Shown: positions 256-16,774 of the stretch, piece after piece
Layout: the number at the start of each line of letters is the position of its first letter
Numbering within the stretch: position 1 is the first letter of the stretch
Notes under the pieces: model-generated
The model's input: only the letters and a program-made list of their open reading frames with translations
Told to the model about the DNA's origin: nothing
Database searches by the model: none
Assembly: GCA_038227875.1 (NCBI GenBank)
Contig: JBBRPR010000045.1
Location: 8,403-72,402 of the forward strand
Source: Planctomycetota bacterium
GTDB taxonomy: Bacteria > Planctomycetota > SZUA-567 > H5-PLA8
Direction: 5' to 3'
DNA: 64,000 nucleotides
Made by a program: the position numbers and the translations under genes

Positions 256-3126
256 TTAAACAAAGTGCAAGTAGCCAAGCCGCGCGTCGTCGTCCCGGTA
301 TTCGTACCCCTGGCACCAGCCGACTTGCCGGTTGCGCTTCACTGCCGGGTTGGTCAGCACATTCAAGCGCCAATGGTCGCCGCGTTTTGGAGAGCCGCCC
401 AACTGCGTCCAGGGAATGGTCAGCTCAAAGCGCCAGTTGGATTCTGTGTGCTCGAAATGCATGCCGCAACCTTCGAGCACCATGGGCTTCTCGGAGCCGC
501 GCTGGAGCGTGCCGCCTTCACCGCGGAAGTAGATCACGTAGTTGAGCAGCTCCGAACCGGGCTTCTGCAGGAAGACGCGCATGAATCCGGTCTGGTTGAT
601 CGTGCCGCGATTTTTCGTCCACATCTCGTCGCGCACTTTCCAATCGATCCCGTGTTCACGCAGCACCAGCTTCAAGCCTGCATCCGTCTGCGTCGCGCGG
701 AAGTCGCAGACATCTTCACGGAAGAAATTCTCGCGCCGGAAAAACGATCCCACGTTGTCCCAACTCGGCTGACCCCAGCGGTAGCACTGATCGTGGACCA
801 GCGGCAGGAAGCTCTCGTCGCGGCCGAGCGCGTCATCTTTCGGCACGTGAGCCCCGGGCGGATGGATCCATTCCAGTTCCGCCTGGAGATAGTGCCGCCA
901 GGCCACCACGTTGTCGCGGTACGCTTCCAGGCCGGGCTTCTGCAGAAGTTCGATCGACTTATCCGCTTCCCGCAGCGCTTCGCGCAGCAGCTTGGCGTTG
1001 CGCAGCGCCATGAACTCACCCGGCCGCACCGAAACATACGCGCGGCAGAGCCGCCGGATTTCGTTGTAGCGTTCGTGCGACGCCAGATACGCGCTCAGCG
1101 CGGGAAAGGGCACGCGTTCCCGCTCGTAAGCGATGATCACGTCGAGTGCCGCGGCGTCCTTCGCGGGACTGAACGGGCCGCTGGCGTTCGTGGAGGTGTA
1201 GTGATCGGTCTCGCCAATTCGATCGCCCAGCACGCGGACGGTTTCGAGCATCAGCGCGCGGGCGCGCTTCAAGTGCGTGAACAGTTGCGTCGAGCTCCGT
1301 GCGAAATAGCACGAACTGAGCTCAATGGCGATGCGGATTTCGCGCTCGATGCGTTCGCCATTGCGGACATTGCGGTCCACCTGCTCCAGCGTCGCCGTGT
1401 CGGCCGCGTCTCCGGTAAGTTTCTTGTACGTCGCGGCGGCGGCGCGCGCGGCCTTCACGTGCCGTTGAATCTGCGCGGCCATTGCCGCCGGATTGTTCAC
1501 CGGCTTTTTCTTCACCGCCGGATTGACGTAATCGATCGGCGCCTGCGTATCGTTTTCGACAACCTTGATCGGCTTGTCGCGGACCACCCACGCCTTCCAA
1601 GAAACGTTGTGCGGAATTTCGCCGAGCCTGTTAAGGAACGACATCGGGTAGTAGAAGAACGGCTCCTGATAATGGCTGAAGCGCCCCGGAAACGCGTAGC
1701 CTTCCTGCGCCGAACCGTAACAGAACTGGCGGTACTGCTTGAGGATGATCTGGCTGGATTCCACGATCGCGGTGCGCAGCGCGGCGGCAGCCTTTGTGTC
1801 GCACGAAAACCAGCGCGCGTAGCGTTCGTTCCACGCGGCCGCGTCCGGATTTTCGCCGCGGACGTAATCCACCGCGGCCTGCAAATGTCCCTGATTCATT
1901 TTCGCATGCGAATGATCACGCGGCGTGTACAGCGCTTCGGTCGCTGCCGCGGGCAGTTGCGGTATCAGCAATTCCGTCGTCGATTGAAAGCTGATCGAGT
2001 CGGCGCCCTTGTCCTGAATACTCTTTAACAGCGCGTGAACGTATTCCGGATCGGTCCACAATTTGGCGCTGATGTTCGTGCCGCAGTTGTGGCAGGGACC
2101 GACGCTGAACGTGAATTCAATGTCCGGCATCGCCTTCTTCCAGACTTTCACGCGATCATCGGCGACCGGGAAGTAGTAGACGTCATTCGTGTCGTGACTC
2201 TTGTGAACCAGTCCCTTGGGGCCCTTGTACTTCTTCATCAGGCCCGTCATCCCCGCCACGTCAGAGAATCCCCACAGGCGGAAAAACAGCGTCGGTTTGC
2301 GTTCCATCGCGTTGGCGACCGGCAGCAGCGTCTGCTCCATGTAGTCGATGGCGTTGGGCGCGGATTCGAAATTGATGTACAGCCCGTTGAGTTCCGGCAG
2401 CGTCTCGAAGGTGCGCTGGTAGATGTAGCGGTTGTAATCGTAGATGCGCGGATGATTGAATGCAGCCAGCCGCGTGCCGCTTTCTTTCAGCCCCAACCCC
2501 AGGTGATCGGAGAGCGCCTGCGTGAAATGCGAAACGTAGTGATGAAGGAACGTGCGCAAGCCGTACTTCTGCGCGGTGCCGTAGATCAGTTTCAGCGCGC
2601 GGAAATTCGCCGCGCGCAGTTCGGCCGGATTGTACGTCGCGTGTGGAAAGCCTTCGTAGTCGAGAAAAAATTCGAACGGATGATACCCTGCGTACAGCAC
2701 CAGCCCGTTGAAGTGCCGCCGCGCCAGTTCCTGGCAGAACGCTTCGACGAATTCCGCGGTGTACTCCGTGATCGGCTTGCCGCCGTTGCCGCGCTTGGAA
2801 TGGCCGTCGGGAACCTGGAAGCAGATCTCGTGCTTGTAATTGCGCGTCTTGAAGCGCGGCAGCAGCCCGCTCTCGCCTTCAGCGCCTTTCGCGAGTTCCA
2901 GCAGCGCGCCGATGGCGCCCACCGCCGTGTGCGCATGAACCGCAATGCGCCCCGCCGGACGTTCGATGCGGTAACCGTCATCGGTGCGTCCGTTCAGTGG
3001 CAGCAGTTCGAGTTTATCGCTGCCAACACGCAGCGTGCCGCGCGCTTCTTTGGCTCCAGGGATGGTATGAAAGGCCCAGCGAATTCCGTGTGCGGCAGCT
3101 CCAAAACGTTCAGCGATGACGTCCAT
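256..3126 (-). CDS. Large hypothetical protein, probable glycoside-hydrolase-like barrel with a C-terminal CBM9/DOMON-like domain
   Basis: 956-aa ORF with an RBS-like GGAG. The N-terminal DDGYRIER..IAVHAHTAVGAIGAL resembles GH20/GH67 domain 2. The C-terminal WRFELTIPWTQLGGSPKRGDHWRLNV resembles CBM9-type domains. No signal peptide. Confidence 0.55.
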   Translation of the reverse strand: MDVIAERFGAAAHGIRWAFHTIPGAKEARGTLRVGSDKLELLPLNGRTDDGYRIERPAGRIAVHAHTAVGAIGALLELAKGAEGESGLLPRFKTRNYKHEICFQVPDGHSKRGNGGKPITEYTAEFVEAFCQELARRHFNGLVLYAGYHPFEFFLDYEGFPHATYNPAELRAANFRALKLIYGTAQKYGLRTFLHHYVSHFTQALSDHLGLGLKESGTRLAAFNHPRIYDYNRYIYQRTFETLPELNGLYINFESAPNAIDYMEQTLLPVANAMERKPTLFFRLWGFSDVAGMTGLMKKYKGPKGLVHKSHDTNDVYYFPVADDRVKVWKKAMPDIEFTFSVGPCHNCGTNISAKLWTDPEYVHALLKSIQDKGADSISFQSTTELLIPQLPAAATEALYTPRDHSHAKMNQGHLQAAVDYVRGENPDAAAWNERYARWFSCDTKAAAALRTAIVESSQIILKQYRQFCYGSAQEGYAFPGRFSHYQEPFFYYPMSFLNRLGEIPHNVSWKAWVVRDKPIKVVENDTQAPIDYVNPAVKKKPVNNPAAMAAQIQRHVKAARAAAATYKKLTGDAADTATLEQVDRNVRNGERIEREIRIAIELSSCYFARSSTQLFTHLKRARALMLETVRVLGDRIGETDHYTSTNASGPFSPAKDAAALDVIIAYERERVPFPALSAYLASHERYNEIRRLCRAYVSVRPGEFMALRNAKLLREALREADKSIELLQKPGLEAYRDNVVAWRHYLQAELEWIHPPGAHVPKDDALGRDESFLPLVHDQCYRWGQPSWDNVGSFFRRENFFREDVCDFRATQTDAGLKLVLREHGIDWKVRDEMWTKNRGTINQTGFMRVFLQKPGSELLNYVIYFRGEGGTLQRGSEKPMVLEGCGMHFEHTESNWRFELTIPWTQLGGSPKRGDHWRLNVLTNPAVKRNRQVGWCQGYEYRDDDARLGYLHFV

Positions 3127-3193: not shown

Positions 3194-4363
3194 TTAAAGC
3201 TGCGAAGCCAGCCATTCCGCCACGCGGCACGCGTCGTAAAAATCCTTGAGCACGATCTCTTCGCGCGGCGTGTGAACGTACCGTTGCCCGCAGCCCATCG
3301 TGACGCAGGGAATGCCGTGCATGACCACGTTGTTGGCGTCCATGCCGCCGTCGTTGGTTTCAAACTCCGGAGTCAGCCCGAATTTTCGCAGCGCCACAGC
3401 CGCGGTCTGGGCGACCGGGCTTTCGATGTCGACATGGAACGCGTCGTAAATCGGTCCGGGAGTAAAGCGCACACTTCCCGCTTCGCCCGCGTCGTTCTTG
3501 ACGGATGCCGCCGCACGTTCGAACGCCTCGCGCCAGTAGCCGACGATCGTCCGGCGGAATTCGCGGTTGTGCGAGCGGGCTTCGGCCAGGATGTGCAGCT
3601 GCGGCATGACCACGTTGCTGCCGGTGCCGCCGTTGATCGTCCCCAGGTTCGCCGAGCCGACCGCTTCGCCTTTGCGGATGCGGCCGTGCCAGCCGGCTTT
3701 GATCAGGTCCGCCAGCGCCAGCGCCGCGATGGCCGCTGACGAAATGCCCTGCTCCGGATGCCCGCCGGCGTGCGAGGCCTTGCCCGTGATGTGAATGTGA
3801 AACCGTTCCGTCCCCGTCACCGCGTGCGTCACTAACGCCGGATCGTCGGAATCAAAATTGTAGCAGAGCGACGGCAGCGGCGACCCAAGCTTCGTCACGT
3901 CCATGCCGTGCGAGCCGACGAGGCCGATCTCCTCCTGCACGAAAAAGACGAGCGTCGTCGGCGCGTGTTGTCCGTTCAGCGCGATGAGTTTTCGCGCCAG
4001 GTTCAGCAGCACCGCGCAGCCGGTGCGGTTGTCGCCGCCCAGGCATTTACCTTCCGCGGCGTTGCGGATCTTGCCGCCGTCCAGCACCGGTTTGGCGCCG
4101 ACGCAGTCCGGCACCGTGTCGAGGTGCGCGCAGAACATCCGCCGCGGCGGCGGATTTTTCAGCGTACTTTCGAAGCGTACGATCAGATTGCCGGTCGATC
4201 CGCCGATCTCACTCCGCCGGTTCGCGTCGTCGACGACGATATTGTCCGGCGGCACGCCCATCGCCTTCAAGCGCGCGCGGATGAATCCGGCCACGCGTTC
4301 CTCGTGGCCGGACGTTCCTTCGATCTCGAGCAGCTCCAGCAACTCCGTCGTGGCGCGCTCCAT
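3194..4363 (-). CDS. M20 family metallopeptidase (peptidase T-like)
   Basis: Motifs CAHLDTV, GGDNRTG, QEEIGLVG, GKASHAG, GGMDAN, HTPRE. The start was reassigned to ATG 4363, which overlaps the upstream stop (TAATG). Confidence 0.9.
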   Translation of the reverse strand: MERATTELLELLEIEGTSGHEERVAGFIRARLKAMGVPPDNIVVDDANRRSEIGGSTGNLIVRFESTLKNPPPRRMFCAHLDTVPDCVGAKPVLDGGKIRNAAEGKCLGGDNRTGCAVLLNLARKLIALNGQHAPTTLVFFVQEEIGLVGSHGMDVTKLGSPLPSLCYNFDSDDPALVTHAVTGTERFHIHITGKASHAGGHPEQGISSAAIAALALADLIKAGWHGRIRKGEAVGSANLGTINGGTGSNVVMPQLHILAEARSHNREFRRTIVGYWREAFERAAASVKNDAGEAGSVRFTPGPIYDAFHVDIESPVAQTAAVALRKFGLTPEFETNDGGMDANNVVMHGIPCVTMGCGQRYVHTPREEIVLKDFYDACRVAEWLASQL

Positions 4364-5661
4364 TACTTCTTGCCCTTCGACGACAGCTTCGACAGCGCCG
4401 TCTCGAACGCGCTCGCGGCGCGTTCGCATTCGTCGGCGGTGATCGACAGCGGCGGCTGGAAGCGCACCACGTTGCCGAAGACGCCGCCGGTTCCGACCAG
4501 CACGCCGCTTTCGCGCAGCGACGCGCGCAGCTCCTTCGTTTCCGTGTCGGCCGGTTCCTTGGTCTTGCGATCGCGGACCAATTCGATGCCGATCATTAAA
4601 CCCTTGCCGCGCACGTCGCCGATCAGGCTGAATTTCTCCTGCAGCGCGCGGAAGCGGGAGAGCAGGCCTTCGCCGCGCAGCGCCGAATTCTCGATCAGCT
4701 TTTCTTCGCGCAGCACCTGGATGTTGGCGATCGCCGCCGCGCACGAAACCGGATTGCCGCCGAACGTCGAGAGATGATCGCCGGGCTGCATCGCGTCACT
4801 GACGGTGTTGAGCGCCGAGAACGCACCGAGCGGAAAGCCGGACGCGATGCCCTTGGCCATCGTCACGATGTCCGGAATCACGCCGGGGAAATGTTCGATG
4901 CCGAACATGCGGCCCGTGCGTCCGAAGCCCGACTGCACTTCATCGACGATGAAGAGCGCGCCGGTATCGTGGAAAATCTTTACCGCAGTTTCAAAGTACC
5001 CCGGCGGCGGCACCAGGATTCCGCCTTCGCCCAGCACCGGTTCCGCCACGAACGCCGCGACGTCGCCGGAGAGCTGCTGCCGCACCGTGTCTTTCAGTTC
5101 GTTGGCGCAGGCCAGCCCGCAGCTCGGGTATTCCAGCTTCAAGGGACAACGGTAGCAGTACGGCGTCGGCCCGAACGCCACGCCCGACGAGTACGGACCG
5201 TTCTTCTTCTTGCGCGCGGCGTTGCCGGTGATCGACAGCGTGCCCAGCGTGCGGCCGTGAAAGCTGTAGCCCAGCGCCACGATCTCGCGCTTGCCCGTCG
5301 CCTGCTTGGCCAGGCGCAACGCGCCTTCGTTGGCTTCGGCGCCGGAGTTCCCGAAGAAACTCTTGCGCGGGCCGCCCGGCGCAATGTCGGAGAGCGTCTG
5401 CGCTAATTCGCCGACCGCGGGGACCTGATACACGTAGGAGCAGCAATGGACAAGCTTCTTGATCTGCTCAATCGCCGCCGCCGTAACTTTCGGATGATTG
5501 TGGCCCGCGTTGACCACGGAAATTCCGGAGAAGCAGTCGAGGTACTCGCGACCGTCGTCGGCGCGCACCGTCCGGCCGCTGCCGCTGACCAGCGTCAGCG
5601 GCTCGACGCCCTTGGCCGCAACCGGAAGAAGGAAGTTGGCGTACTGCTGAGCGGTTTCCAC
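4363..5661 (-). CDS. Class III (omega-amino acid) PLP-dependent aminotransferase
   Basis: YLDCFSGISVVNAGH, SGAEANE, SFHGRT, FIVDEVQSGFGRTG, TMAKG (PLP Lys), STFGGNP. GTG start at 5661 follows GGAGA; ATG 5682 is an alternative. Confidence 0.92.
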   Translation of the reverse strand: METAQQYANFLLPVAAKGVEPLTLVSGSGRTVRADDGREYLDCFSGISVVNAGHNHPKVTAAAIEQIKKLVHCCSYVYQVPAVGELAQTLSDIAPGGPRKSFFGNSGAEANEGALRLAKQATGKREIVALGYSFHGRTLGTLSITGNAARKKKNGPYSSGVAFGPTPYCYRCPLKLEYPSCGLACANELKDTVRQQLSGDVAAFVAEPVLGEGGILVPPPGYFETAVKIFHDTGALFIVDEVQSGFGRTGRMFGIEHFPGVIPDIVTMAKGIASGFPLGAFSALNTVSDAMQPGDHLSTFGGNPVSCAAAIANIQVLREEKLIENSALRGEGLLSRFRALQEKFSLIGDVRGKGLMIGIELVRDRKTKEPADTETKELRASLRESGVLVGTGGVFGNVVRFQPPLSITADECERAASAFETALSKLSSKGKK

Positions 5662-5746
5662 GGAATGTTCTCCACGATTCATTTCGATTCAGGATAGGGA
5701 CTACAGTCCCCATGTTGGCTTTTGACCACTTGGCGAGTTGCTGAAC

Positions 5747-7288
5747 TCAGACCCAGCCTTCCTTGGGCGCTTCCGCGCCGAACCAGCGTTCGGTGACGAC
5801 CTTTTTGTGCGTGTAGAATTCAACCGCGTCCGGGCCGTACGCGTGCAGATCGCCGAAAAAGGAGCTCTTCCAGCCGCCGAACGAGAACATCGCCATCGGC
5901 GCGGGCACGCCGAGATTCACGCCGAGCATGCCGCACTCGACGCGCGAGCGGAACGTGCGCGCCAGCGCGCCGTCGGTGGTGAAAATCGAAGCCGAATTGC
6001 CGAAGCGGCTGGCGTTGACGATCGTGATCGCCTCATCCAGCGTCGCCGCGCGGAGCACCGTGGCCACCGGTCCGAAAATTTCCTCGCGCGCAATCGCCAT
6101 CGCCGGGTTCGCGCCATCGAACACCGTCGGTCCCACAAAGGCGCCGTTGGGGCGTGAGGCCGACGTCGAAGTCCGTCCATCCAGTACCAGCTTCGCGCCT
6201 TCGCTTACGCCGCGTTCGATCCACTTCACCACGCGCGCGCGCGATTCCATGTTGATCAGCGGGCTCAGCGTGCTCGTCGCATCCAGTCCGTCGCCCAGCT
6301 TCAGAGCGCTGGCCGCGCGCACGAACGCGTCGACGACGCTCTGCTGGCGTTCCGCCGTGCCGACCGCCACGATCACGCTGCCGGCCAGGCAGCGCTGTCC
6401 CGCGCAGCCGAAACACGAACCGATCAGCGCCGGCAGGCTGCGTTCCAGATCGGCGTCAGGCATCACCAGCAGATGGTTCTTCGCGCCGCCCAGCGCCTGG
6501 ACGCGCTTGCCCAGCCGCGTCGCCGCGTGGAAGACCGACTCCGCCACCGGCGTCGAACCCACGAACGAAATCGCTTTTACCTGCTCGTTCTGAATCAAGC
6601 GCTCGGCCACTTCCTTGCCGCCGTGAACGACGCTGATCACGCCCGCCGGCAGTCCCGCTTCGGCAAAGAGCGCCGCGATGCGAGTTCCCGTCAGCGGCGC
6701 GCGTTCGGTCGGCTTCAAGATGAAGGTGTTGCCGCACGCCACGGCCAGCGGCATCATCCACAACGGAATCATCGCCGGAAAATTGAACGGCGGAATCCCC
6801 GCGACGACGCCCAGCGGTTCGCGCAGCATGTACGAATCGACATTCTGCGAGACTTCCGGCAGCGTGCGTCCACAGAGATGCGTGGTGACGCCGCAGGCGA
6901 ATTCAACGACATCGATGCCGCGCCGCACGTCGCCGATCGCTTCGCTCAGCAGCTTGCCGTTCTCTATAACGATCAGCCGGGCCAGCTCATCGACATGCTT
7001 CAGCAGCAGGTTGCGGAACGAAAACAGCACCAGCGCGCGGTCAGAAACGCTCCGCGCCCGCCAGCTCTTGAACGCCGCCCCCGCCGCGCGGCAGGCTTCA
7101 TCAACCTGCGCCAGGCTGGCTTCCTGCACCGTCGCGACCAGTTCGGTCGTGTCGGCCGGATTGCAGATTTTCCGCTGCACCGATCCGGTTCCAGCGACCC
7201 AGACGCCGCCGATCAGATTGCGCGTTTCGTGCGTATGATGGGAGGTCGCGCGCGCTTCAGGCAAAGGTTCAACCGCGTTCATCGTCAT
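5747..7288 (-). CDS. mmsA: CoA-acylating (methyl)malonate-semialdehyde dehydrogenase
   Basis: PFNFPAMIPLW, FVGSTPVA, RVQALGGAKNH, GCAGQRCLA, EEIFGP, FSFGGWKSSFFGDLH are typical of MmsA/IolA. Confidence 0.9.
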   Translation of the reverse strand: MTMNAVEPLPEARATSHHTHETRNLIGGVWVAGTGSVQRKICNPADTTELVATVQEASLAQVDEACRAAGAAFKSWRARSVSDRALVLFSFRNLLLKHVDELARLIVIENGKLLSEAIGDVRRGIDVVEFACGVTTHLCGRTLPEVSQNVDSYMLREPLGVVAGIPPFNFPAMIPLWMMPLAVACGNTFILKPTERAPLTGTRIAALFAEAGLPAGVISVVHGGKEVAERLIQNEQVKAISFVGSTPVAESVFHAATRLGKRVQALGGAKNHLLVMPDADLERSLPALIGSCFGCAGQRCLAGSVIVAVGTAERQQSVVDAFVRAASALKLGDGLDATSTLSPLINMESRARVVKWIERGVSEGAKLVLDGRTSTSASRPNGAFVGPTVFDGANPAMAIAREEIFGPVATVLRAATLDEAITIVNASRFGNSASIFTTDGALARTFRSRVECGMLGVNLGVPAPMAMFSFGGWKSSFFGDLHAYGPDAVEFYTHKKVVTERWFGAEAPKEGWV

Positions 7289-7361
7289 GAGTCGCTCCAG
7301 GGCGGCGCAGCTTTGTTTGCCGCCGGGTTATGCTGCGGGAGAAAAACAGCGTTCAACATCA

Positions 7362-7381
7362 GTGTTCTATATACAGTACAC
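7362..7381. promoter_or_regulatory. Candidate operator (imperfect 20-bp palindrome) upstream of mmsA
   Basis: GTGTTCT-ATATAC-AGTACAC in an AT-rich patch about 75-95 bp upstream of the mmsA start. Confidence 0.4.
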
Positions 7382-7511
7382 CGCGTATGCATACCTGCAA
7401 CACTTATTTTTTGCGGAAATTCATCGGGGTGAAACGGGAGTCTGCAGTCGCGCAATCGCGGATTTCGCGCAGCGCGGAGCCGTGCGGTCCGCTGTCCGGC
7501 GTACGGTGAGT

Positions 7512-8066
7512 TTAGAAGCTCGGCGGCGTGTTGGCGGAGAACGCTTCGACGGTCTTTTTGCCTGTGTTGCGGAAGCGGTGCGGCCGACGGCTGTCGAAAT
7601 AATACGCGTCGCCCGGGCCCAGGATGTAGACGTTGTCCTCGACGGTCAGTTCCAACGTCCCTTTTAGTACGACGCCGGCCTCTTCGGATTCGTGCCGGTA
7701 GAGTTCCGGCCCGGTGTCCGCGCCCGGTTCGTATGTTTCGATCAGCATTTGCAGCGCGCGCCCCGCGCGGCCGGCCGCGATGTCGCGGAACGAAATTCCC
7801 GACTGTCCGGAAATCTGCGTCAGCTCGTCGGCGCGGTAGACGACCTTCGAGAGCGGTTTATTGGATTCGGTGAAGAAGTCCGCGAGACTGCAGCCCAGGC
7901 CCGCGAGAATGATCTTCAGCTTGCCCACGGAAACATTGTTCGTCCCGCGTTCGAGCGCCGAGAGAAAACTCACCGCCACGCCCGTCTCCCGCGACAGCGC
8001 CCGCAGCGTCAGCTTATGCCGCTCACGCAGTTCCTTCAGCCGTTTTCCAATTTCGCTTTCAGTCAC
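7512..8066 (-). CDS. XRE-family HTH plus cupin transcriptional regulator (PuuR/PauR-like)
   Basis: N-terminal IGKRLKELRERHKLTLRALSRETGVAVSFLSALERG HTH; cupin motifs HESEE and GDAYYFDSRRPHRFRN. Confidence 0.9.
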   Translation of the reverse strand: MTESEIGKRLKELRERHKLTLRALSRETGVAVSFLSALERGTNNVSVGKLKIILAGLGCSLADFFTESNKPLSKVVYRADELTQISGQSGISFRDIAAGRAGRALQMLIETYEPGADTGPELYRHESEEAGVVLKGTLELTVEDNVYILGPGDAYYFDSRRPHRFRNTGKKTVEAFSANTPPSF

Positions 8067-8335
8067 GCGATGAGCCCTTTAAGCCCGTTGCCATACGGTG
8101 TTTCATTTACCGTACAGACATGCAGGTCCGAATTCAATGGGAACTTTGAGGGAGTTCTTGTCATGGGCTAAATTTTATGTTGCCCATCAGCTCATATCCG
8201 CCCTTTGAACCCATCCGGCTTAAAGGACAAACGCCCGCGGAGCGGAAGATTAACGACTGATACCTCGAATTACCGAACCGCGCCTCATCAGCGCAGTCGC
8301 ACAACTGGCAAACGCGGCGATAGCGCCGCGTGCGC

Positions 8336-11194
8336 TTACTCGAGTTCCAGGACGATGGACTTCATCGTGGGCTTGGTGGCGCATTTGATTGTGTATTTGT
8401 CGTCGGGGGATTTGGCGATGTGGATGTCCTGCTTCGCCACGCCGGCTTCTTCCCAATTGTAGGTGATCTTGACGGGCGCGAAGCCGCCGTGGGGTTCTTT
8501 GTAGTCGGCGTCGATGCGGAAAGCATTGATCATCGTCGCGTTGTTGTTGGTGGTACCGGCGTAACGGACCCAGGCTTTGCGCGTGCCGGCGGGGACGTCG
8601 GTGGAGATCGTGAACTTGCAATCGTTGGTGACGGGGCCACTGGCGCGGTCGACAGTCTTGAAGGATTTGCCGTCGAAGGAGACCTGGTAGTCCCAGCCGG
8701 CTTTGGCGTCGCGGGCGCGGTAGTAGGAACCGAAGCGCAGGCGCGTCATGTCGCCTGGGGTTTCGATGGGAAAGGTGATGCTGCCTTCGGCGCCGTTGAT
8801 CATCAGACCCGGGCGGGTGATGTTGACTTCCGCGGGATCGTAGTCGGTGTAGACAATCTGCTTGGAGGCCTGCGCGGGATCGGTGTTGGCTTCAAGCGTG
8901 ATGGTCCCTTCTTGAGCACCCGCGTTGAAGCTGATCGTGTTGTCGCCGAGGCCCAGCGCGGGGAGCGGGCGCTGCGAGTGCTGGATGTCGTGGGAGATCT
9001 GGAGCGCATCGAGGCCCGTGCCTTTGCCGGTGAGCGTGACTTTCAGCTGGTATTCGTAGCGGCGGAAGGCGAAGGGCTTGAGGTCGATGTGCTGTTCGCC
9101 GCTGGCGGTGATTTTCGTCACGTCCTTCCAGTGGTGGCCGTGGTTGTCGCTGAAGGCGACGGCGATCGAACCGCCATCACCAATCACGGACTTCAGGAAG
9201 AGATCGCCACTGAGGTAAATGTAGCTGCAGGGCATGCGGAGGATCAGTTCGCCAGGCTTCGCGGCGTCTTGCACGTGAACGGCCGGGCCGGCTTTGTCTT
9301 CGGCGCTGGTGGCGAGGTTGACGACGGAGAGCGCGCCGGCTTTGAAGCTGCCGTCGGCCAGCGGCACGGCGTAGTCGAGCTTTCCATTGCCGACGCGGCC
9401 GTTGGTCAGATCGCCTTCCTTGATATTGTAGCGGTTGAGTTTATCTGGCGTCATTGAAATGCAGCCGGGGCCGCCGCCTTCGAGCATGTTGACGTGGAGG
9501 CCGGTGTTCGACCAGTTGCGCGTGAGGCGTTCGCCTTTGCGCAGTTGAATGTTGACCTGGTAGCCGATGGCGTAGCCGGGTTCCCACGGCATTTTGTTGC
9601 TGCCGTCGTATTCGCCCATGTTGGAGTACCAGCCGTGCGTCATCGCCGGCAGCCAGCCGCGGTCATCGTAGGAGGGACTGCGGGTGAGGACGTCGGGGCC
9701 AGTCTTGAATCCAGCGCCCTTGAATTCCAGCTCGCGCAGCTTGTCCTCGTTGCCTTTGTAACCGGGGTTCTTGCCGTACCAGTCGGCGACGCCGGCGAAG
9801 ATTTCGTCGACGCTGGCGATCTTGCCGTCGGCCTTGGGGAAGTTGACGATCAGCGAGCCGTCCATGAGGTGCCAGGCGTCGTCCCAATACATTTCGGAGA
9901 CGACATGGCGGTTGATGGTCCAGCCGCGGGCCTTGACGCCGACGTGGCGCGCGAGCTGTTCGGTGTCGGCGGTGGCGACGCCACAGAAGCTGTAGCCGTA
10001 GACGTTGAAAATTTTCATTACGTCCTGGACCAAGCCTTCATTGTGGAGGAATTCGTTGGGCGGGCCGTCCTGGTACTGGTAGGTCCAGACCGACTTCCAG
10101 ACCGTGCGCGCTTTCTCCTCGTCGCTCATGCCGTCCTTGATGTACGACTTTTTCCACGCATCGAGACTGGAGACGTCGGGCACTTTATCCGAGAGCACTT
10201 TGATATAGCTGACGACGCCGATGCTGTTCGTGGATTCTGGCGGCGGAGGAGTTTTCTCGTCGCCCTTCGGAATTTCACGGATGGCAGGCAGCACGGCGGC
10301 GCGCGCGGGTTCCGACGGCTTGCCTCCGCCGAACGCGTAAGCTCCGGCGGCGAGCGTCGCGACGAAGGCCGCGGCGGCAACGGCTTTGGGGATCCACGCG
10401 CCAAATTTGGCGCCAGCTTGGAGCGTCTTTCCGGCTTTCGCGGCGTGGCCGGCGTGCGCGGCGGCCTGCAGTGAAGCGACGGCGCCAACGGACGCCGGCG
10501 CCTGGGCCAGCGGCAGGGTGCGCAGGCTGGCTTCGAGCATCACGGCAGAGAACGCCGCGCCACTTGCTCCAGCGAGCGAGGTCCGCAGTGTCGTCAATCC
10601 TCGCGCGATGCGTGAACCGACGGTGCCGGCGGGGATGCCGAGCGTGGTGGCGACTTCCGGCTGCGAGAGTCCATGCAGAAAATGGAGCGCGATGGGCAGC
10701 TGCATGTCCGGCGGCAGCTTTTCCAGCGCGTGGCGCAGTTCGGGGCCGGTGAGTGCGGGCGCGGCGTTGGTCGCGTCACGTTGCGTGTCAATATTCATCG
10801 AGTAGGAATCCTCCCGGGCTTCGCGACGGCGATCGGCGCGGCGCGCGTTCATGGCGACGTGGCGCGTGACGCCCAGCAACCACGCGCGGATCGGCAGCGC
10901 GGGGGTGCGGGTGGCGGTGCGCAGAAAAATTTTCAGGAACACTTCCTGGGCGATGTCTTCGGCGAGGGCGGCATCGCCGACGCAGCGGCGCGCGAAGTCG
11001 TAGACGCTGTCGCGATGGAGCGCGACGAACGTTTCAAACGCGCGCACGTCGCCGGTGGCGAGATACGCGGCGTAAAGTGCTTCGTCGGAGGCCGGCGGCG
11101 CTGCCATGGGGGCCTTGGCGGCCATTGCGGGTGGTACGGACTTCATGTTGAGCTTCTCCAGCGCAGAATTCCGGGCTGCCAGGATCTCTACCAT
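8336..11194 (-). CDS. ECF sigma-70 factor with a TM helix and a large C-terminal transglutaminase-like/beta-sandwich extension
   Basis: Sigma2 (DAALAEDIAQEVFLKIF..RAWLLGVTRH) and sigma4 (LSQPEVATTLGIPAGTVGSRIARG), an Ala-rich linker, hydrophobic AVAAAAFVATLAAGAYAF, then YGYSFCG..RHVVSEMYW..WHLMD. Exact start uncertain. Confidence 0.85.
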   Translation of the reverse strand: MVEILAARNSALEKLNMKSVPPAMAAKAPMAAPPASDEALYAAYLATGDVRAFETFVALHRDSVYDFARRCVGDAALAEDIAQEVFLKIFLRTATRTPALPIRAWLLGVTRHVAMNARRADRRREAREDSYSMNIDTQRDATNAAPALTGPELRHALEKLPPDMQLPIALHFLHGLSQPEVATTLGIPAGTVGSRIARGLTTLRTSLAGASGAAFSAVMLEASLRTLPLAQAPASVGAVASLQAAAHAGHAAKAGKTLQAGAKFGAWIPKAVAAAAFVATLAAGAYAFGGGKPSEPARAAVLPAIREIPKGDEKTPPPPESTNSIGVVSYIKVLSDKVPDVSSLDAWKKSYIKDGMSDEEKARTVWKSVWTYQYQDGPPNEFLHNEGLVQDVMKIFNVYGYSFCGVATADTEQLARHVGVKARGWTINRHVVSEMYWDDAWHLMDGSLIVNFPKADGKIASVDEIFAGVADWYGKNPGYKGNEDKLRELEFKGAGFKTGPDVLTRSPSYDDRGWLPAMTHGWYSNMGEYDGSNKMPWEPGYAIGYQVNIQLRKGERLTRNWSNTGLHVNMLEGGGPGCISMTPDKLNRYNIKEGDLTNGRVGNGKLDYAVPLADGSFKAGALSVVNLATSAEDKAGPAVHVQDAAKPGELILRMPCSYIYLSGDLFLKSVIGDGGSIAVAFSDNHGHHWKDVTKITASGEQHIDLKPFAFRRYEYQLKVTLTGKGTGLDALQISHDIQHSQRPLPALGLGDNTISFNAGAQEGTITLEANTDPAQASKQIVYTDYDPAEVNITRPGLMINGAEGSITFPIETPGDMTRLRFGSYYRARDAKAGWDYQVSFDGKSFKTVDRASGPVTNDCKFTISTDVPAGTRKAWVRYAGTTNNNATMINAFRIDADYKEPHGGFAPVKITYNWEEAGVAKQDIHIAKSPDDKYTIKCATKPTMKSIVLELE

Positions 11195-11453
11195 GCTGCA
11201 TACACCTCCGCGTGCCGAGTGAAGCGGTCTTCGCAGATAGATCTCCGCCGGCGGGGTGAGTTCTCCCAGAAAGTGTAACGAATTGGAGAAAAAAGTGGGG
11301 AGGAACTGGGTAAGTATTAGTTGATGAAGGGCGCCGACTTAGCGAAATGGCGACGCGGTGGCAGGTCGTTTTTGCCGCTTAAAAAACGCTGGCTTCCGCA
11401 ATGTTTGGGCGGCGCTCCGCATCGAAAGTGCGAAGCGCGAATTGGACATTCCA

Positions 11454-12638
11454 TCAATGCGATCCCAATCGCTTCACAGCTTCGCCGGACATCAGATCGT
11501 GGGCTTCGGCGAGCGCGGCGGGGATCGTGACGGCGTGGGGACTTTTCTTCAGGCAGGGGAAGAAGTCAATGCCATCGAGCTTGTCGGCTTTGTTGCCGGG
11601 AAACCAGTGGTCGGCTTTGCCCAGCAGGTTGTAGCGCATCTTGCCGTACTCGGTCATGTCGAACGCGCGCACGAAATTGCGCAGCCGCAGAATCTCGAAG
11701 ACGTTCACCTCGCCGGGCACGTCCTGCCATTCGGGCAGGCCGACGTGCCAGGACTGCATCCAGTCGCGGCCCAGTGATTTTTCGAGTTCCTCCTGCAGGC
11801 GCGCTTCGACTTGTTTCACGACGGCGGCATGCTGTTCGGGCGATTCCAGATACGGCAGTGCGCGCAAGTGTTCGTCGAAGTCCGACGGCCGCGCCGCGCC
11901 GATGCTGAGCGTGTGCACTTCCGGACGAGCGAGGCACCACAAATTGTTAAAGACGATCGGCGAAACCGGATCGGTCAGCTTCACCAGTTTCTCGCTGGGC
12001 GCGTAAAGTTTCCCGCCCTTGTCGCTGGGGCTGATGATGAACACGCCCATGCCCAACTTCGTCGCCAGCTCGATCGCCGGCCAGTTGAACGGATTGACGT
12101 AGTACCAATGCAGATTCACGTACTCGAAACGGCCGTCGCCGATCGTGTCGAGCATCACCTTCAGATTGCTGTGCGTCGAGAATCCAACATGGCGGACGCG
12201 GCCCTGCTCCTTCAACTTCAGCGCCGCTTCCAGGCAGCCGCCGGGCCGGACCGACCACTGGCGGCGTTCGTCGGTGTTGATGCCGTGCAGACCGAGCAGG
12301 TCGACGTAATCGAGTTTCAAGAGCGACATCGAACGTTCGAAATTCTTCAGGAACGCTTTCGGATCGGCATCGGGACCAACCTTTGTCTGCACGATCATCT
12401 TGTCGCGCGGCAGCTTGGGGAGAATATGGCCGAGCTGCTCTTCGCTGGTGCCGTAGCCGCGGGCAGTTTCGATGTGGTTGATGCCCGCGTCGAGCGACCG
12501 GCGGATGGTCGCCTCGAGATTTTTCTGGCTGTCGGGCGTGAACGGATCCTTGTCGTTCCACGACTGCTGGTAACGCATCCCGCCGCAGGAGAACACGGGC
12601 ATCTGCAGGTTCGTCTTGCCGAAACGGCGGTAGAGCAT
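11454..12638 (-). CDS. Aldo/keto reductase family oxidoreductase
   Basis: MLYRRFGKTNLQMPVFSCGGMR, GINHIETARGYGTSE, RHVGFSTH. Confidence 0.88.
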   Translation of the reverse strand: MLYRRFGKTNLQMPVFSCGGMRYQQSWNDKDPFTPDSQKNLEATIRRSLDAGINHIETARGYGTSEEQLGHILPKLPRDKMIVQTKVGPDADPKAFLKNFERSMSLLKLDYVDLLGLHGINTDERRQWSVRPGGCLEAALKLKEQGRVRHVGFSTHSNLKVMLDTIGDGRFEYVNLHWYYVNPFNWPAIELATKLGMGVFIISPSDKGGKLYAPSEKLVKLTDPVSPIVFNNLWCLARPEVHTLSIGAARPSDFDEHLRALPYLESPEQHAAVVKQVEARLQEELEKSLGRDWMQSWHVGLPEWQDVPGEVNVFEILRLRNFVRAFDMTEYGKMRYNLLGKADHWFPGNKADKLDGIDFFPCLKKSPHAVTIPAALAEAHDLMSGEAVKRLGSH

Positions 12639-12711
12639 GGATGGGATCCTCAAGGTTGGGTGCGTGAGGATATTACTTTATAGAGGGACCTGGCGTTCGG
12701 CAATTCCGTTC

Positions 12712-12893: not shown

Positions 12894-15650
12894 TTACTTC
12901 ATCAGCTTCGTCAGGTGCTCCATCAGTGTGTTGTGGAATTCCTCTTCGTTGAAACCCTTCGGCGGCGTGTGCTGGTTCAGGCCGATCTGCTTGTTGAGAC
13001 CTTCGAGATACTCCTGAGCGGCGGTGGCTTCCGGCGTGCCCTTCTTTTTCTCGGCGAGGTTCCAGACCGTCGTCGCCAGGCGCAGATCGAACGCGCCTTC
13101 GCAGCAGCGCACGGCATAAAGCGTCGGAATGACTTCGGATTTGCCCCAGTTGATCACGCCTGGGTCCGGTTCGCGGCCATCCAGATCGAACCACTGATAG
13201 CCCGAGACCGCCAACGTGTGCCACTGCATCAGTCCCTTCAAGCCTTTGCGCATTTCGGCGAAGCAGTACACGCCAAACGTGTAGCGGTCGAGGCCCTGGT
13301 TGTAGATGTGAAGCTCCTTGCCGAACTTCTTCGCGTTGTCCAGATCGTCCTGCGTGTGGGTGTTGACGCCCGACCAGTTCATCGTCCTGAAGATTTCCTG
13401 GATCGTCTTTTCCAGTGGGCCGGTGTTCTTCCAGTCGACGGAATAGAAGCCGCCGACCTTCAGCCACGGCACGGCATCGTGGTAGGCTTTGTGGTATTCA
13501 AGATTCAGCTTCGCCGGCTCTTCCGCGCGCGGTTCATCGAGCTGGCCGTAGTAGATGGGCAGCCAGTTTTCCTTTTCGGCATGCGCTTTCACTTCGCCCC
13601 AGACGATCTTCAGGATGTCGCCGTAGGACTTGCCGGTCTGCTTCATCAGGTTCTTGCCGGTCTCGCCGATTTCATAACCGTCGCTGAGCCCCTCCACCCA
13701 GCCTGGGCCGCCGTAGGAATAGACGGGGTGCGTGATGCCGGCCTTGCGGATCTGTTTGAAGTAATCGTCGCACGCTTTGAAGTCGAGCTTCGGCTTACCC
13801 GTCTCGTCGAAGCCCTGGAAGGGTATGCTCGGTCCGCCACAGAAGCTGTTCATGCCGTACTGCTTCATCAGCTTCGCCAGATCGTAGTAGCCATTTTCGC
13901 GCGGAGACCACGCACCCAGGAAGCCGATGTTGAAGTCGGGATCATCCAGCGCCACGCCGATCACGTCGACGGTGAGCGGCACCTTAATGTTCAGTTCCCC
14001 TGCGCTCAGCGTAACTTCGCCCTGGTACGACCCGGCCTTCGCGTCGGCAGGGATATCGAGGGTGATCCAGAACTGGCGCGTCAGCTCCTTGGTGAGCTTC
14101 AAGCCCGAGCCGTCGACACGCCGGATACTCATCGGCATGATCGTGTAGGCAATGTCGTTGAAGCCGCGCTGCGTGAGATGGTGGATGTAGCGCAGATCGA
14201 GATTGGACGCGGGAATCTTGCCAGCGGGGCCGCTGAGGTCCGTCGCGCTGAGCTTCACGTCGCTGTTGAAATCCTTGAGCGGGCGTACCGCAAAGGTGAA
14301 GGACATGCGCTGGCCGAGCGTGCCGGTGCGCTTGAGTTTGCCGTCAGATTTTCCGGGCGCATCAACGAAGGTCACGGTGTCTTCCAGCGTCGGCACGCCA
14401 AACCAGAAACCTTTCGCCTTGGCGTCGGCGGGGATTTCAAGCGCCTTGGGCTTCGGGCCCATGAAGGCGGCGCGCGTATCGAATTCCTTCTTGTTGCGCT
14501 CTTCGATCTCCGTCACCCACTTTTCGGATTCGGTCTTTCCGGCGTCCGGGTAGACGATCATCGCCGCGACTTTCGTCGACCAGCCGGCGTCGGCCGCGCA
14601 CTGAATGCGCAGCTTGCCGTCGGTGACTTCCGCGTCGAAACGCACCGGTTTGAACAGGTCTTTCATGTACAGCTCCCACATGCTGTCGCCGGGCTTGGGT
14701 TCGATTTTTTCGAAGCGGTAAAGATAGTCATTGGGTCCGTCCGCACCACGGTCGTCGACGTAGACCTGCTTGCCGTTGGCCGAGACGGTGCGCTTGTGGT
14801 GGTGGCAGGTCTCGCCGCCCCAGTAGCCGCAGTCGTCAAAGACCATCCAGACGTGAACTTTTCCGTTGGGGGCTTCGGCGATGAATTCGTTGCCGTTCTC
14901 TTCAAACCAGACATAGTCCTGGTACAGGCGCGTGGGAAACGTGTCGTCGCGGGCCCGGTTGGGCGCGCCGCATTTCATCTTGAAGCCGGCCTTGGCGCCG
15001 TTTTCGCCGAAGACCGTGTTCCACGAGATCGCCGAGAAGCCCGGGAAGACCGTCTGGCTTTCCGGACCGAAATCGAAGGCGAGAATGCCGGCCGGGCGTG
15101 TCTCTTTGGTAAAGCGGATATTGTCGAGGTAGATCGCAGTGACCTTGCCGTTGAATCCGAGGTCCAGGCGCAGGATCTGCGTGGAGTCGATATTCGCATG
15201 GATGTCCCCGTTGCGCGACCCGGCTTCGCCACGGAAGAGCCCGTTGACGGGAATGGAGAGCACGCCCGCGCCGGGTTTCAGATTGAACGTGCCGTTGTGC
15301 CGGTTCCAGTAATTGCTGCCTTTATCCTTCCACGGCTGGTCACCAATCAGGATGGTGCCGTTGACCGGCTCGGTACCGTCGACGAAGACATCGATATCCA
15401 GAGAATCGTACGCGGACCAGTCCTTGGGCATCCGCCAGGATGTCAGGTATTCGCCCGGAAGAATCTTGAGCGACTTCTGCCCGTGTGTGACGTGCTGGTC
15501 GCTGGGCTTTCCGGTCTTCATTTCGAAGAGGGTCATGTCCGCGTCGTTCTCAAAATCGCAGAGCAGCTTCTCTTCCGCGCGTACCGCCAATGCACTGATC
15601 GCCATCAGCGCCAGCAGGGCGCAGCATTTCGAAATTCCGTGTGAAGCCAT
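12894..15650 (-). CDS. Secreted multidomain glycoside-hydrolase-like protein (CBM-like N-terminus, GH123-like region)
   Basis: Signal peptide MASHGISKCCALLALMAISALAVRA after AAGGAG. Motifs LLCDFE..KDWSAYDSLDIDVF, TRQFWITLDIPADAKAGSYQGEVTL and YGQLDEP. Confidence 0.6.
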   Translation of the reverse strand: MASHGISKCCALLALMAISALAVRAEEKLLCDFENDADMTLFEMKTGKPSDQHVTHGQKSLKILPGEYLTSWRMPKDWSAYDSLDIDVFVDGTEPVNGTILIGDQPWKDKGSNYWNRHNGTFNLKPGAGVLSIPVNGLFRGEAGSRNGDIHANIDSTQILRLDLGFNGKVTAIYLDNIRFTKETRPAGILAFDFGPESQTVFPGFSAISWNTVFGENGAKAGFKMKCGAPNRARDDTFPTRLYQDYVWFEENGNEFIAEAPNGKVHVWMVFDDCGYWGGETCHHHKRTVSANGKQVYVDDRGADGPNDYLYRFEKIEPKPGDSMWELYMKDLFKPVRFDAEVTDGKLRIQCAADAGWSTKVAAMIVYPDAGKTESEKWVTEIEERNKKEFDTRAAFMGPKPKALEIPADAKAKGFWFGVPTLEDTVTFVDAPGKSDGKLKRTGTLGQRMSFTFAVRPLKDFNSDVKLSATDLSGPAGKIPASNLDLRYIHHLTQRGFNDIAYTIMPMSIRRVDGSGLKLTKELTRQFWITLDIPADAKAGSYQGEVTLSAGELNIKVPLTVDVIGVALDDPDFNIGFLGAWSPRENGYYDLAKLMKQYGMNSFCGGPSIPFQGFDETGKPKLDFKACDDYFKQIRKAGITHPVYSYGGPGWVEGLSDGYEIGETGKNLMKQTGKSYGDILKIVWGEVKAHAEKENWLPIYYGQLDEPRAEEPAKLNLEYHKAYHDAVPWLKVGGFYSVDWKNTGPLEKTIQEIFRTMNWSGVNTHTQDDLDNAKKFGKELHIYNQGLDRYTFGVYCFAEMRKGLKGLMQWHTLAVSGYQWFDLDGREPDPGVINWGKSEVIPTLYAVRCCEGAFDLRLATTVWNLAEKKKGTPEATAAQEYLEGLNKQIGLNQHTPPKGFNEEEFHNTLMEHLTKLMK

Positions 15651-15682
15651 GAGCGTATCTCCTTTTTCCGGTCTCAAATAAA

Positions 15683-16774
15683 TCAGTGATGGCGCGGGCA
15701 GTCGCACGAACCGCGCGAAAGCCACGACGTCGCAAATTCCACGCGCTGCGGCGGTGCCGCCGGGCGCTTCATCCGTTCGGAGAGCAGCCGCGCCGCGGCC
15801 GCGCCCATTTCATCGATCGGCACGTGCACGGTCGACAACTGCGGCACCGTGAAGTAACCGTCGTCGCCAAAGCCGATGATGCTCATGTCCTTCGGCACAC
15901 GCCAGCCATGCTCGTTGACCGCCGCGATCGCGCCGATCGCCAGCACGTCGCCCGTGCAGACCAGCGCCGTCGGCGGCTTGGTTTCGTTGAGCAGCCGCCG
16001 CGTCGTCGCGTACGCCGCTTCGCCCCAATACACGATGGGATAGATCCGTTCGTTGCGCACGGTCAGGCCATTGGCCGTCAGTGCGCGCATGTAGCCGTTC
16101 TGGCGGCGCAGACCGATGCTGTTGAGTTCGCTGGCCTGCATCAACGCGATGTCGGTATGCCCCATCTTGATCAGCCAGTTGACCGCGTTGAAAACGCCGA
16201 TCTCGCCATTCTGCGCCACTTCGTCGAACATCGCCGGCTCCGCCTGGACGCAGTCGAGCAGCACCACCGGGACGGAAAGTTCCGCGAACAGTTTCGAGAC
16301 GTTCGGATCGCCGAGCCAGACGGCGACGATGCCACGCAGCGATGGATCGTTCTTCAGCGCGTCGATCGCCTGCGCGTACGGTTCCTTCAGCGTGCGAAAG
16401 ACGATCGGCATGCCCGTCTCTTCCAGCCCGACGAAAAGGTATTGCAGCAGCCGGTAATAAATCTGCGAGGTGATCTCGTTGGGATCGGCGGTGCTGACAA
16501 TCGCGACCGATCCTTTGCGCGTGCGCGGCTGCGCAGACTTGCCGTCGCGTACGAACGTGCCTTTGCCGACGATGCGTTTGAACAGGCCTTCGCGGCTGAG
16601 TTCCACCACGGCGCGGCGCACGGTCATGTGGCTGACCTTCAACTGCGCGGCGAGCACGTTCTCATCGGGGATGCAATCCCCGGGCTTGAAGAACCCCGCT
16701 TCGACCTGCGAACGCAGGCCATCCTTGATCTGCTCATAAAGGGGGGACGCCGCTTTTTTCTTCACGTTGAACAT
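15683..16774 (-). CDS. GntR-HTH plus LacI-type ligand-binding regulator (AraR-like)
   Basis: PLYEQIKDGLR..PDENVLAAQLKVSHMTVRRAV..GKGTFV; C-terminal PTALVCTGDVLAIG..VPKDMSIIGFGD. Start 16774 or 16801. Confidence 0.88.
   Translation of the reverse strand: MFNVKKKAASPLYEQIKDGLRSQVEAGFFKPGDCIPDENVLAAQLKVSHMTVRRAVVELSREGLFKRIVGKGTFVRDGKSAQPRTRKGSVAIVSTADPNEITSQIYYRLLQYLFVGLEETGMPIVFRTLKEPYAQAIDALKNDPSLRGIVAVWLGDPNVSKLFAELSVPVVLLDCVQAEPAMFDEVAQNGEIGVFNAVNWLIKMGHTDIALMQASELNSIGLRRQNGYMRALTANGLTVRNERIYPIVYWGEAAYATTRRLLNETKPPTALVCTGDVLAIGAIAAVNEHGWRVPKDMSIIGFGDDGYFTVPQLSTVHVPIDEMGAAAARLLSERMKRPAAPPQRVEFATSWLSRGSCDCPRHH

Follow-up and report, generated by a model that had tools for sequence, protein, structure and literature searches.

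The sigma-TGL gene

The window analyzed here is a 64,000-nucleotide (nt) stretch of DNA from a Planctomycetota bacterium (assembly GCA_038227875.1, contig JBBRPR010000045.1, positions 8,403 to 72,402 of the forward strand). A gene on its minus strand (8336..11194) encodes a protein of 952 amino acids (aa) plus the stop codon, in a single frame that is translated without an internal stop. This protein, P0001, joins an extracytoplasmic function (ECF) sigma factor, by way of one hydrophobic helix, to a ~625 aa C-terminal module made of a transglutaminase-like domain and two beta-jelly rolls. The module is referred to as TGL, and the genome that encodes P0001 as G000. Going by the ortholog P0002, whose N-terminus falls near Met17 of P0001, the gene may start instead at an in-frame ATG at 11146 (Met17).

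All parts of the protein are encoded on the minus strand. Sigma-70 region 2 (aa 57-124; 10823..11026) matches Pfam PF04542 Sigma70_r2 with 38.8 bits against a cut-off of 24, and region 4 (aa 152-203; 10586..10741) matches PF08281 Sigma70_r4_2 with 46.7 bits against a cut-off of 25.7. NCBIfam TIGR02937 (sigma70-ECF) scores 68.7 against 42.9. Sigma2 and sigma4 are present and Pfam returned no r3 or r1 match, which is the layout of an ECF (group 4) sigma factor. An Ala-rich cytoplasmic linker (aa 207-262; 10409..10576), conserved across orthologs and paralogs, leads to a single transmembrane-type helix (aa ~265-289; 10328..10402). The helix is the lone hydrophobic stretch of P0001; 19-residue Kyte-Doolittle windows of 1.5 or more start at residues 264-272 and reach a maximum of 1.74. 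It is followed by a Pro-rich extracytoplasmic spacer (aa 290-325; 10220..10327), which is variable among orthologs and modeled with low confidence. The transglutaminase-like (papain-like Cys-His-Asp) domain (aa 326-600; 9395..10219) carries the motifs YSFCG (Cys404, codon 9983-9985), RHVVSE (His430, 9905-9907) and WHLMD (Asp445, 9860-9862). The remainder (aa ~601-952; 8339..9394) consists of two beta-jelly-roll domains with Asp-box motifs that by fold resemble carbohydrate-binding modules (CBMs) and reelin subrepeats. An earlier interpretation of the same DNA, the sequence-only reading, had described intact sigma2 and sigma4 regions, an Ala-rich linker, one hydrophobic helix, the Cys, His and Asp motifs and a beta-rich C-terminal half; each was recovered here, the last in the structure model described below.

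Integrity of the fusion

It is extremely improbable that P0001 is an artefact of assembly or annotation in which adjacent genes for a sigma factor and a secreted TGL protein were falsely joined. In favor of such an artefact, the 9.3 Mb genome is in 176 contigs, 88% complete with 4% contamination, and part of the junction is bridged by only one independent sample (run X2, 10031-10507). On the other side, the one continuous frame rules out a stop or frameshift at the sigma/TGL junction, and the same sigma lineage is joined to the same module in five further proteins of other assemblies (P0002, P0005, P0006, P0104 and P0270); other sigma lineages carry the module too. Furthermore, no signal peptide lies between the two halves; a linker-plus-helix element common to 10 paralogs is found there instead. 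Positions 8720-11400 are covered without a single difference by a 3,320-nt Logan contig from run X1, which may be the source sample. The contig from X2, another sample of the same study, is 477 nt long, also has 0 differences, and spans the linker, the helix and the start of the TGL module. Runs X3 and X4 yielded only short pieces with 1-7 differences, none of which bridges the sigma/TGL junction. A chimeric assembly is thus unlikely, given the recurrence of the fusion and the identical bridging contigs.

Fold and Cys-His-Asp triad of TGL

The AlphaFold2 (AF2) model of residues 300-952 has a mean predicted local distance difference test score (pLDDT) of 87 and a predicted template modeling score (pTM) of 0.86. 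The first domain alone (residues 323-600) has a pLDDT of 85.7, and the part of the model that corresponds to the spacer (model residues 1-5 and 10-23) falls below 50. When the whole 653-residue model was submitted to Foldseek, only jelly-roll matches were returned. With the first domain as query, the matches were TglA, LapG, BDI_1141, arylamine N-acetyltransferases, a putative cysteine protease of Cytophaga, transglutaminase, menin and PNGase (best E-value 3e-3). A VIA-align search of 48,161 chains with the same domain placed LapG first (Z 7.4, 135 residues aligned, root mean square deviation 3.8), then TglA (6.9), BDI_1141 (6.9) and 3isr (6.8), next factor XIII (6.7) and TG2 (6.6), and further down arylamine N-acetyltransferases, PNGase, vasohibin, Pei endoisopeptidases, TgpA and protein-glutaminase.

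In the AF2 model, helix 105-118 opens with Cys105, strand 131-138 opens with His131, and Asp146 follows strand 141-144 (model numbering). As modeled, the order and placement of Cys, His and Asp are those of the classical transglutaminase arrangement. LapG, TglA, the periplasmic domain of TgpA, BDI_1141, PNGase and the arylamine N-acetyltransferases share this core fold, in which the Cys begins a helix and the His and Asp sit on adjacent strands. According to the titles of their structure entries LapG and TgpA, too, act in the periplasm. TGL is unlike the LapG/TglA/TgpA-type proteins in that it shares just 6-17% identity with them at Z-scores of 7.4 or less, has an extra helical insert, and carries two jelly rolls.

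Profile comparisons point the same way. Pfam Transglut_core (PF01841) matches at E<=1 in 26 of 53 TGL relatives (best 1.6e-5), and its 23-bit cut-off is passed by the distant relative P0252 (25.6 bits) and by a distant paralog in G000 itself (C40:37092-37379, 25 bits). When TGL was compared by hhalign with eight canonical Transglut_core segments of G000, Cys404, His430 and Asp445 coincided with the residues of the canonical triad. Sequence searches of the PDB were uninformative: the TGL profile gave one spurious match (E 0.77), and P0252 gave HicB at E 0.6 and nothing useful. The assignment of TGL to an enzyme type thus draws on many weak but concordant signals, and takes its weight from the coherence of the fold list.

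The triad is highly conserved. Among 144 full-length members the Cys is present in 139, the His in 139 and the Asp in all 144, and the five members without Cys are also those without His. Such a joint loss is as expected if the two residues work together. The five members that have the Asp without Cys and His are P0121, P0126, P0125, P0134 and a paralog in G000 (L015:8213-10303, minus strand). Judged by sequence they are likely pseudo-enzymes; two of them are signaling fusions, one with a kinase and one with FecR.

A large family of secreted proteins

With P0001 residues 300-952 as the TGL query, 1,183 proteins were found at E<=0.001 among 8,000 scored candidates of a clustered protein collection, and an exhaustive search returned 1,211 representatives. 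Nearly all are named "hypothetical protein", are ~655 residues long, and are 54-65% identical to the query. None of the family matches has a precomputed Pfam domain over the module, and NCBIfam returned no family for the module and two free members. The records that name an organism are from Planctomycetota (several orders), Verrucomicrobiota and Armatimonadota, all of them metagenome-assembled genomes (MAGs). A crude hydropathy test detected a hydrophobic leader in 93 of 129 free members; many of the others have a leader that is visible on inspection, or are truncated at the 5' end. Because the free members begin with hydrophobic leaders, the TGL module is taken to be extracytoplasmic. To judge from these sequences, TGL is a large, uncurated family of mostly free secreted proteins and not a dedicated sensor, which corrects the sequence-only reading.

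G000 encodes six full-length TGL copies, the fused one and five free ones that are 53-55% identical to it, plus about ten distant partial relatives. In several MAG contigs, two to at least six TGL genes lie in tandem (L042 and L044, which lie on one contig, L073, L080 and L019). The distant members P0143, P0147 and P0252 combine the TGL core with right-handed beta-helix, disaggregatase-related and dockerin domains, an apparently non-signaling architecture. A scan of metagenome DNA for fused orthologs gave 32 loci, none of which spans both halves: 30 match from query residue 308 onward, that is, TGL only, and the two weakest (L136 and L137, 33% and 27% identity) match only the sigma region, residues 52-207. 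Since no locus spans both halves, there is no orthologous upstream DNA for promoter footprinting.

Repeated coupling of TGL to signaling proteins

TGL is found joined to three kinds of signaling domains. The fusions to the sigma lineage of P0001, lineage A, number six (P0001, P0002, P0005, P0006, P0104 and P0270); their N-terminal parts are 46-67% identical, and the linker, helix and TGL are common to all. Sigma factors of three further lineages are also fused to TGL, in P0122/L040/P0024, in P0008 and in L055. These sigmas are ~30-37% identical to lineage A and to one another. FecR is fused to TGL in P0049, P0094, P0123, P0126, P0132 and L049, and a Ser/Thr kinase in P0121 only. In all 15 fusion proteins checked, one hydrophobic segment lies between the cytoplasmic part and TGL. 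Sequence comparison thus indicates that TGL has been recruited repeatedly to membrane signaling proteins of the sigma, FecR and kinase kinds.

Tree reconstruction agrees with repeated recruitment. In a FastTree phylogeny built from 144 modules, the sigma and FecR labels each require a minimum of 3 changes. In an IQ-TREE analysis of 49 rows, forcing the nine sigma-fused rows into one clade costs 386 log-likelihood units, with a p-value of 1e-54 in the approximately unbiased (AU) test. P0008 and P0001 are 64% identical in TGL and 32% in sigma; for P0104 and P0001 the values are 56% and 56%. Because the module of P0008 is close to that of P0001 while its sigma is far more distant than that of P0104, several independent gains of sigma are suggested. 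Within the sigma-fused clade there are also free, leader-bearing proteins (P0003, P0004 and L017:5704-7725) that are 79-80% identical to the fused TGL. By their sequences, these free forms imply either that sigma was lost recently or that the sensor was copied to give a secreted protein.

The fused modules also bear on whether catalysis matters. TGL might be a pseudo-enzyme receptor that binds a ligand or a partner, such as a free TGL paralog or an envelope polymer, with a triad that is still in place because the fusion is young and with catalysis irrelevant. Loss of Cys and His is seen in two of 15 fused modules (the FecR-fused P0126 and the kinase-fused P0121) as compared to three of 129 free ones, a difference that favors this possibility but is not significant (Fisher p = 0.08), and the jelly rolls look like carbohydrate-binding modules. 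However, the triad is intact in all nine sigma-fused proteins, which belong to at least four sigma lineages, and in lineage A it was never lost while the sigma part diverged to 46-67% identity. A receptor of this kind is therefore unlikely for P0001. For the signaling role in general, catalysis does not seem to be needed, because the signaling fusions P0126 and P0121 have lost Cys and His.

Unfused operons and the fusion series

TGL is also encoded next to separate sigma and FecR genes. In L012 (G000 contig C20) an ECF sigma (6286-6897), a FecR (6945-7949) and a free TGL (7968-10178) follow one another, and the same sigma-FecR-TGL order occurs in L042, L062 and L073. In L068 FecR is directly upstream of TGL; the scan there did not extend to sigma. 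The operon sigmas are 55-81% identical among themselves and 22-30% identical to lineage A. A derivation of the fusion from the L012 operon was rejected, since the L012 sigma and the fused sigma share just 27% identity.

The operon-type TGLs have an additional domain of ~75 residues after the leader. The Pfam STN model matched it in three of 10 proteins scanned (E 0.0025 in L042, 0.017 in L073 and 0.15 in P0093), all under the 28.4-bit cut-off. In an Atlas feature search with this domain, STN clusters came first (0.92, 180 shared features, 21 of 30 matches), and a profile search of the PDB gave nothing relevant. STN is the signaling domain through which TonB-dependent transducers contact FecR. 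If the STN assignment is right, for which there is moderate support from sequence, TGL would take the place of the outer-membrane transducer in these operons. The STN-like domain is absent from P0001 and from the FecR-TGL fusions, as expected if covalent fusion makes it unnecessary.

The relatives thus form a series from three components (sigma, FecR and STN-TGL) through two (sigma and FecR-TGL) to one (sigma, transmembrane helix and TGL), with P0001 at the fully fused end. A more far-reaching proposal is that in the Planctomycetes-Verrucomicrobia-Chlamydiae (PVC) group and Armatimonadota this enzyme family replaces the TonB-dependent transducer, and that engagement of substrate, possibly an acyl-enzyme step, licenses the proteolytic release of sigma. 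The proposal is doubtful as it stands. If true, it would describe a sigma factor with an enzyme as receptor, together with a complete natural fusion series from three components to one.

The sigma-linker-helix scaffold and known systems

The N-terminal part of P0001 is a scaffold that recurs in this and related genomes. When residues 17-297 (sigma, linker and helix) were used as query, 11 places were found in G000 at E<=1e-20. Of the 20 genomes of this order that were searched, 12 had one match or more at this threshold, a tally that includes G000 and, for this count alone, the unpublished genome G019. The ten further G000 open reading frames (ORFs), L150-L159, are 458-1,146 residues long and each has one hydrophobic segment at about residues 230-340 (C14:63244-65781, C8:88029-91355, C42:55456-58047, C17:44243-46480, C13:113887-116013, C67:31342-34386, C57:31327-34794, C91:16364-19360, C16:27880-29310 and C23:12820-14649). 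Their extensions are HEAT in two, CarboxypepD_reg/Big_1 in one, WD40 in one and a PQQ_2 propeller in one; five have no Pfam match. The ~55-residue linker after sigma4 is conserved in the six lineage-A orthologs and alignable in all 11 sigma-helix-extension proteins of G000. Outside the TGL fusions, the nearest long relatives are ECFs extended by WD40, HEAT, TPR or CarboxypepD_reg domains, at ~30% identity.

This scaffold is that of a known planctomycetal class of ECFs with a long C-terminal extension (ECF57-like; older class name "ECF01-Gob"). To our knowledge, ECFs with membrane-spanning extensions are abundant in Planctomycetota and none has been characterized there. ECF57 sigmas are present at 5.3 copies per planctomycetal genome (PMC7826278), carry WD40-type extensions, and have sigma2 and sigma4 linked by two conserved cysteines (PMC8999054). 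P0001 is like them in its ECF core with a long C-terminal extension, its many paralogs per genome and its phylum, but its extension is of enzyme type rather than WD40 repeats. It also does not have the two cysteines: Cys71 is the sole Cys in residues 1-300, and there is none between residues 72 and 403. The statement of the sequence-only reading that planctomycete ECFs often carry C-terminal extensions agrees with both the ten G000 paralogs and the ECF57 literature.

ECFs with a transmembrane C-terminal extension have already been described, namely IutY/ECF243, ECF48/52/53 and ECF57 (PMC8999054, PMC7826278). IutY of Pseudomonas putida is a sigma/anti-sigma hybrid with a membrane-spanning C-terminal part, activated by Prc and then RseP (PMC8999054). 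Like P0001, it has a sigma fused to a membrane-spanning part, and TGL too occurs with FecI/FecR-type partners. IutY contains an anti-sigma part resembling FecR and takes its input from a TonB-dependent receptor, whereas P0001 has no FecR and brings its own sensor module; Pfam gave no FecR match in P0001 at E<=1, though FecR is readily detected in P0049, P0094 and other relatives. The actinobacterial ECF52 (SCO4117) and ECF48/53 consist of a sigma, a transmembrane helix, an extracytoplasmic Pro-rich region and a carbohydrate-binding domain (PMC8999054, PMC5826349), and proteolytic activation has been proposed for ECF52 (PMC8999054). P0001 has the same order of parts, with a carbohydrate-binding-like domain outside. 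In ECF48/52/53 the sigma is followed by a zinc-finger (ZAS-type) anti-sigma segment, whereas the linker of P0001 has no Cys and no zf-HC2-type Pfam match; P0001 also differs by its phylum and by the catalytic-type domain in its outer part.

A further parallel is the membrane-bound anti-sigma-I factor RsgI of Clostridium thermocellum, whose outer part duplicates polysaccharide-binding or enzyme modules of the organism's own degradative system (PMC10328401, PMC12203970, PMC6852018, PMC4711584) and which signals by autoproteolysis followed by RseP cleavage (PMC10328401, PMC12203970). As in P0001, the outer module of a membrane signaling protein is copied from secreted enzyme-type or binding proteins. 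The RsgI system is unlike P0001 in having a separate sigma and anti-sigma, a sigma of the sigma-I class, another anti-sigma domain and another phylum. No description of a sigma-TGL fusion was found in the literature searched, which did not take in the per-group supplementary tables of PMC7826278, where one might be listed; this is in line with the remark in the sequence-only reading that no characterized example was known. Of its proposal of a one-component transmembrane protein with an enzyme as sensor, the tether, the helix, the transglutaminase/papain-like fold and the Cys-His-Asp triad stood; the general design itself is not new. What is new is the sensor role of TGL, an unannotated, highly conserved, secreted family of enzyme type; the scaffold is known.

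Jelly rolls, neighboring genes and the candidate ligand

The last ~350 residues of P0001 form two jelly rolls. In VIA-align, model residues 307-598 match a reelin repeat (Z 10.4), and model residues 463-600 match CBM61, CBM29, CBM22, CBM35, CBM36 and CBM6 (Z 8-9.6). Among the 53 TGL relatives, weak Pfam matches were to BNR (37), Reelin_subrepeat-B (26) and F5_F8_type_C (6). A CBM-like fold alone is not proof of sugar binding.

The gene is flanked downstream by an HTH_3+cupin regulator (7512-8066, minus) and upstream by an aldo-keto reductase (11454-12653, minus); a 943-aa GH123_N-like protein and a GntR/LacI-type regulator lie farther upstream. As the sequence-only reading had noted, there is no adjacent anti-sigma gene: a scan of 15 neighboring ORFs matched no anti-sigma family. 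Associations of TGL with its neighbors were drawn from 99 proteins (16 TGL-bearing ORFs and 83 same-strand upstream ORFs). A GH123-like neighbor is present in L063, L079, L087 and this window, MR_MLE in L063, L070, L076 and L079, an aldo-keto reductase in L050, L089 and this window, ThuA in L023 and L058, and PIG-L in L034 and L088. The GH123-like and reductase neighbors share just 21-30% identity between loci, and the GH123-like genes of L063, L079 and L087 are 21-24% identical to the 943-aa copy in the window. The CBM-like domains of the model and the recurrent neighbors point loosely to a glycan or glycoconjugate, which is probably the ligand of TGL.

Several other features of the window were recorded. 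The HTH_3+cupin regulator, an aldehyde dehydrogenase, a class-III aminotransferase and an M20-type peptidase lie in the same orientation at 3194-8066 (minus), a layout that resembles an amine/amino-acid catabolic cluster. A 956-aa ORF at 256-3126 (minus) has no Pfam match, and the 943-aa ORF at 12894-15725 (minus) has the GH123 N-terminal domain as its sole Pfam match (32 bits). An unrelated second PF01841 match at 53253-53561 (minus; G000:C45:61655-61963), with 24.3 bits barely above the cut-off, lies within a 506-aa frame. A consensus scan gave a single sigma-70-like site, which is intragenic, and weak terminator-like sites; neither was used as evidence.

Proposed model for signaling by P0001

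We favor, with some reservation, the reading that P0001 is a one-component trans-envelope regulator in which TGL provides the input and sigma would be freed by regulated proteolysis. The sequences provide the domain order, the sidedness (by homology to free forms that bear signal peptides), a fold whose triad is conserved, and the repeated coupling of TGL to signaling. In the proposed mechanism, the cytoplasmic ECF sigma would be held at the inner membrane by the conserved linker and one transmembrane helix. The extracytoplasmic TGL would bind, and perhaps turn over, its own substrate, probably a glycan or glycoconjugate. Once TGL is occupied, site-1 and site-2 proteases would gain access to the Pro-rich spacer or to the helix, which is rich in Ala and Gly, and the freed sigma domain would then direct transcription, plausibly of genes for using that substrate.

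The conserved linker may be an in-cis inhibitory or anti-sigma-like segment. When sigma residues 38-206 were co-folded with linker residues 207-262, the median score was 0.34 as compared to 0.01 for the best control, which lends weak support, the two chains being neighboring pieces of one polypeptide. At least 91% of contacts agreed between runs, and the pLDDT of the partner was 57 or higher. Of 157 solved complexes 116 reached the mark used, as did two of 215 mismatches; among passes at 0.60 or less, wrong ones outnumber right ones unless the pairing was already probable. A further suggestion of the sequence-only reading, that the enzyme controls the release of its own sigma domain, found no support, the enzyme lying across the membrane from sigma.

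Several points weigh against the favored reading: i) the TGL domain of P0001 itself matches no Pfam family at E<=1, the hhalign comparison with Transglut_core has an E-value of 0.006 (for a single comparison) and a probability of only 6%, and the individual fold Z-scores of the first domain are all below 8; ii) the lineage-A clade also contains the free proteins P0003 and P0004 (79-82% identical to the fused module), and the AU rejection therefore demonstrates that sigma was gained or lost at least twice, which need not mean several gains; iii) proteolytic release would be by analogy to IutY and RsgI-type systems, and the M50/RseP-like protease gene of G000 (C47:15608-17164, 167 bits) is uninformative because each of the 14 control genomes also encodes an M50 protease; iv) the idea of a glycan is a guess based only on fold likeness and scattered neighbors; and v) no upstream motif common to the 11 sigma-helix-extension paralogs stood out, the expectation-maximization (EM) log-likelihood being 68.8 against 65.2 +/- 3.8 (maximum 75.6) in 12 control sets. 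The candidate pattern is AT-rich, and a run with more starts gave 80.5, a setting at which the controls were not run.

P0001 could also be first of all a membrane-anchored enzyme, a periplasmic hydrolase or acyltransferase whose sigma works while tethered, in the manner of ToxR or CadC, or adjusts its own gene, and is never released. The Cys, His and Asp kept in every sigma-fused member would suit such an enzyme, and the fused module matches the free enzymes in its degree of conservation, with short branches to its close relatives P0003 and P0004. Pfam scans of P0001 and its relatives recognized no protease site or autoproteolytic domain. However, a sigma factor must join the RNA polymerase core, and the characterized membrane-fused sigmas in the literature cited (IutY, and by proposal ECF52) act after proteolysis (PMC8999054). 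Furthermore, the same scaffold carries non-enzymatic domains (HEAT, WD40, propeller) among the 10 paralogs, and because these share it, the scaffold appears to be a signaling device whatever domain it bears. We thus consider an anchored enzyme quite unlikely, and retain the regulator with TGL as its input as the preferred reading.

Implications

Since the sensor of P0001 is a whole copy of a widespread secreted family, identifying the substrate of that family would reveal the signal at once. As a natural "Rosetta stone", the three-, two- and one-gene arrangements connect an orphan family with sigma/anti-sigma signaling, and they provide simple constructs for studying the release of fused sigmas. 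Compact single-protein sensors like this one are also attractive as orthogonal switches. For the organism, the fusion may mean that the cell reads the substrate of a secreted TGL protein directly into gene expression.

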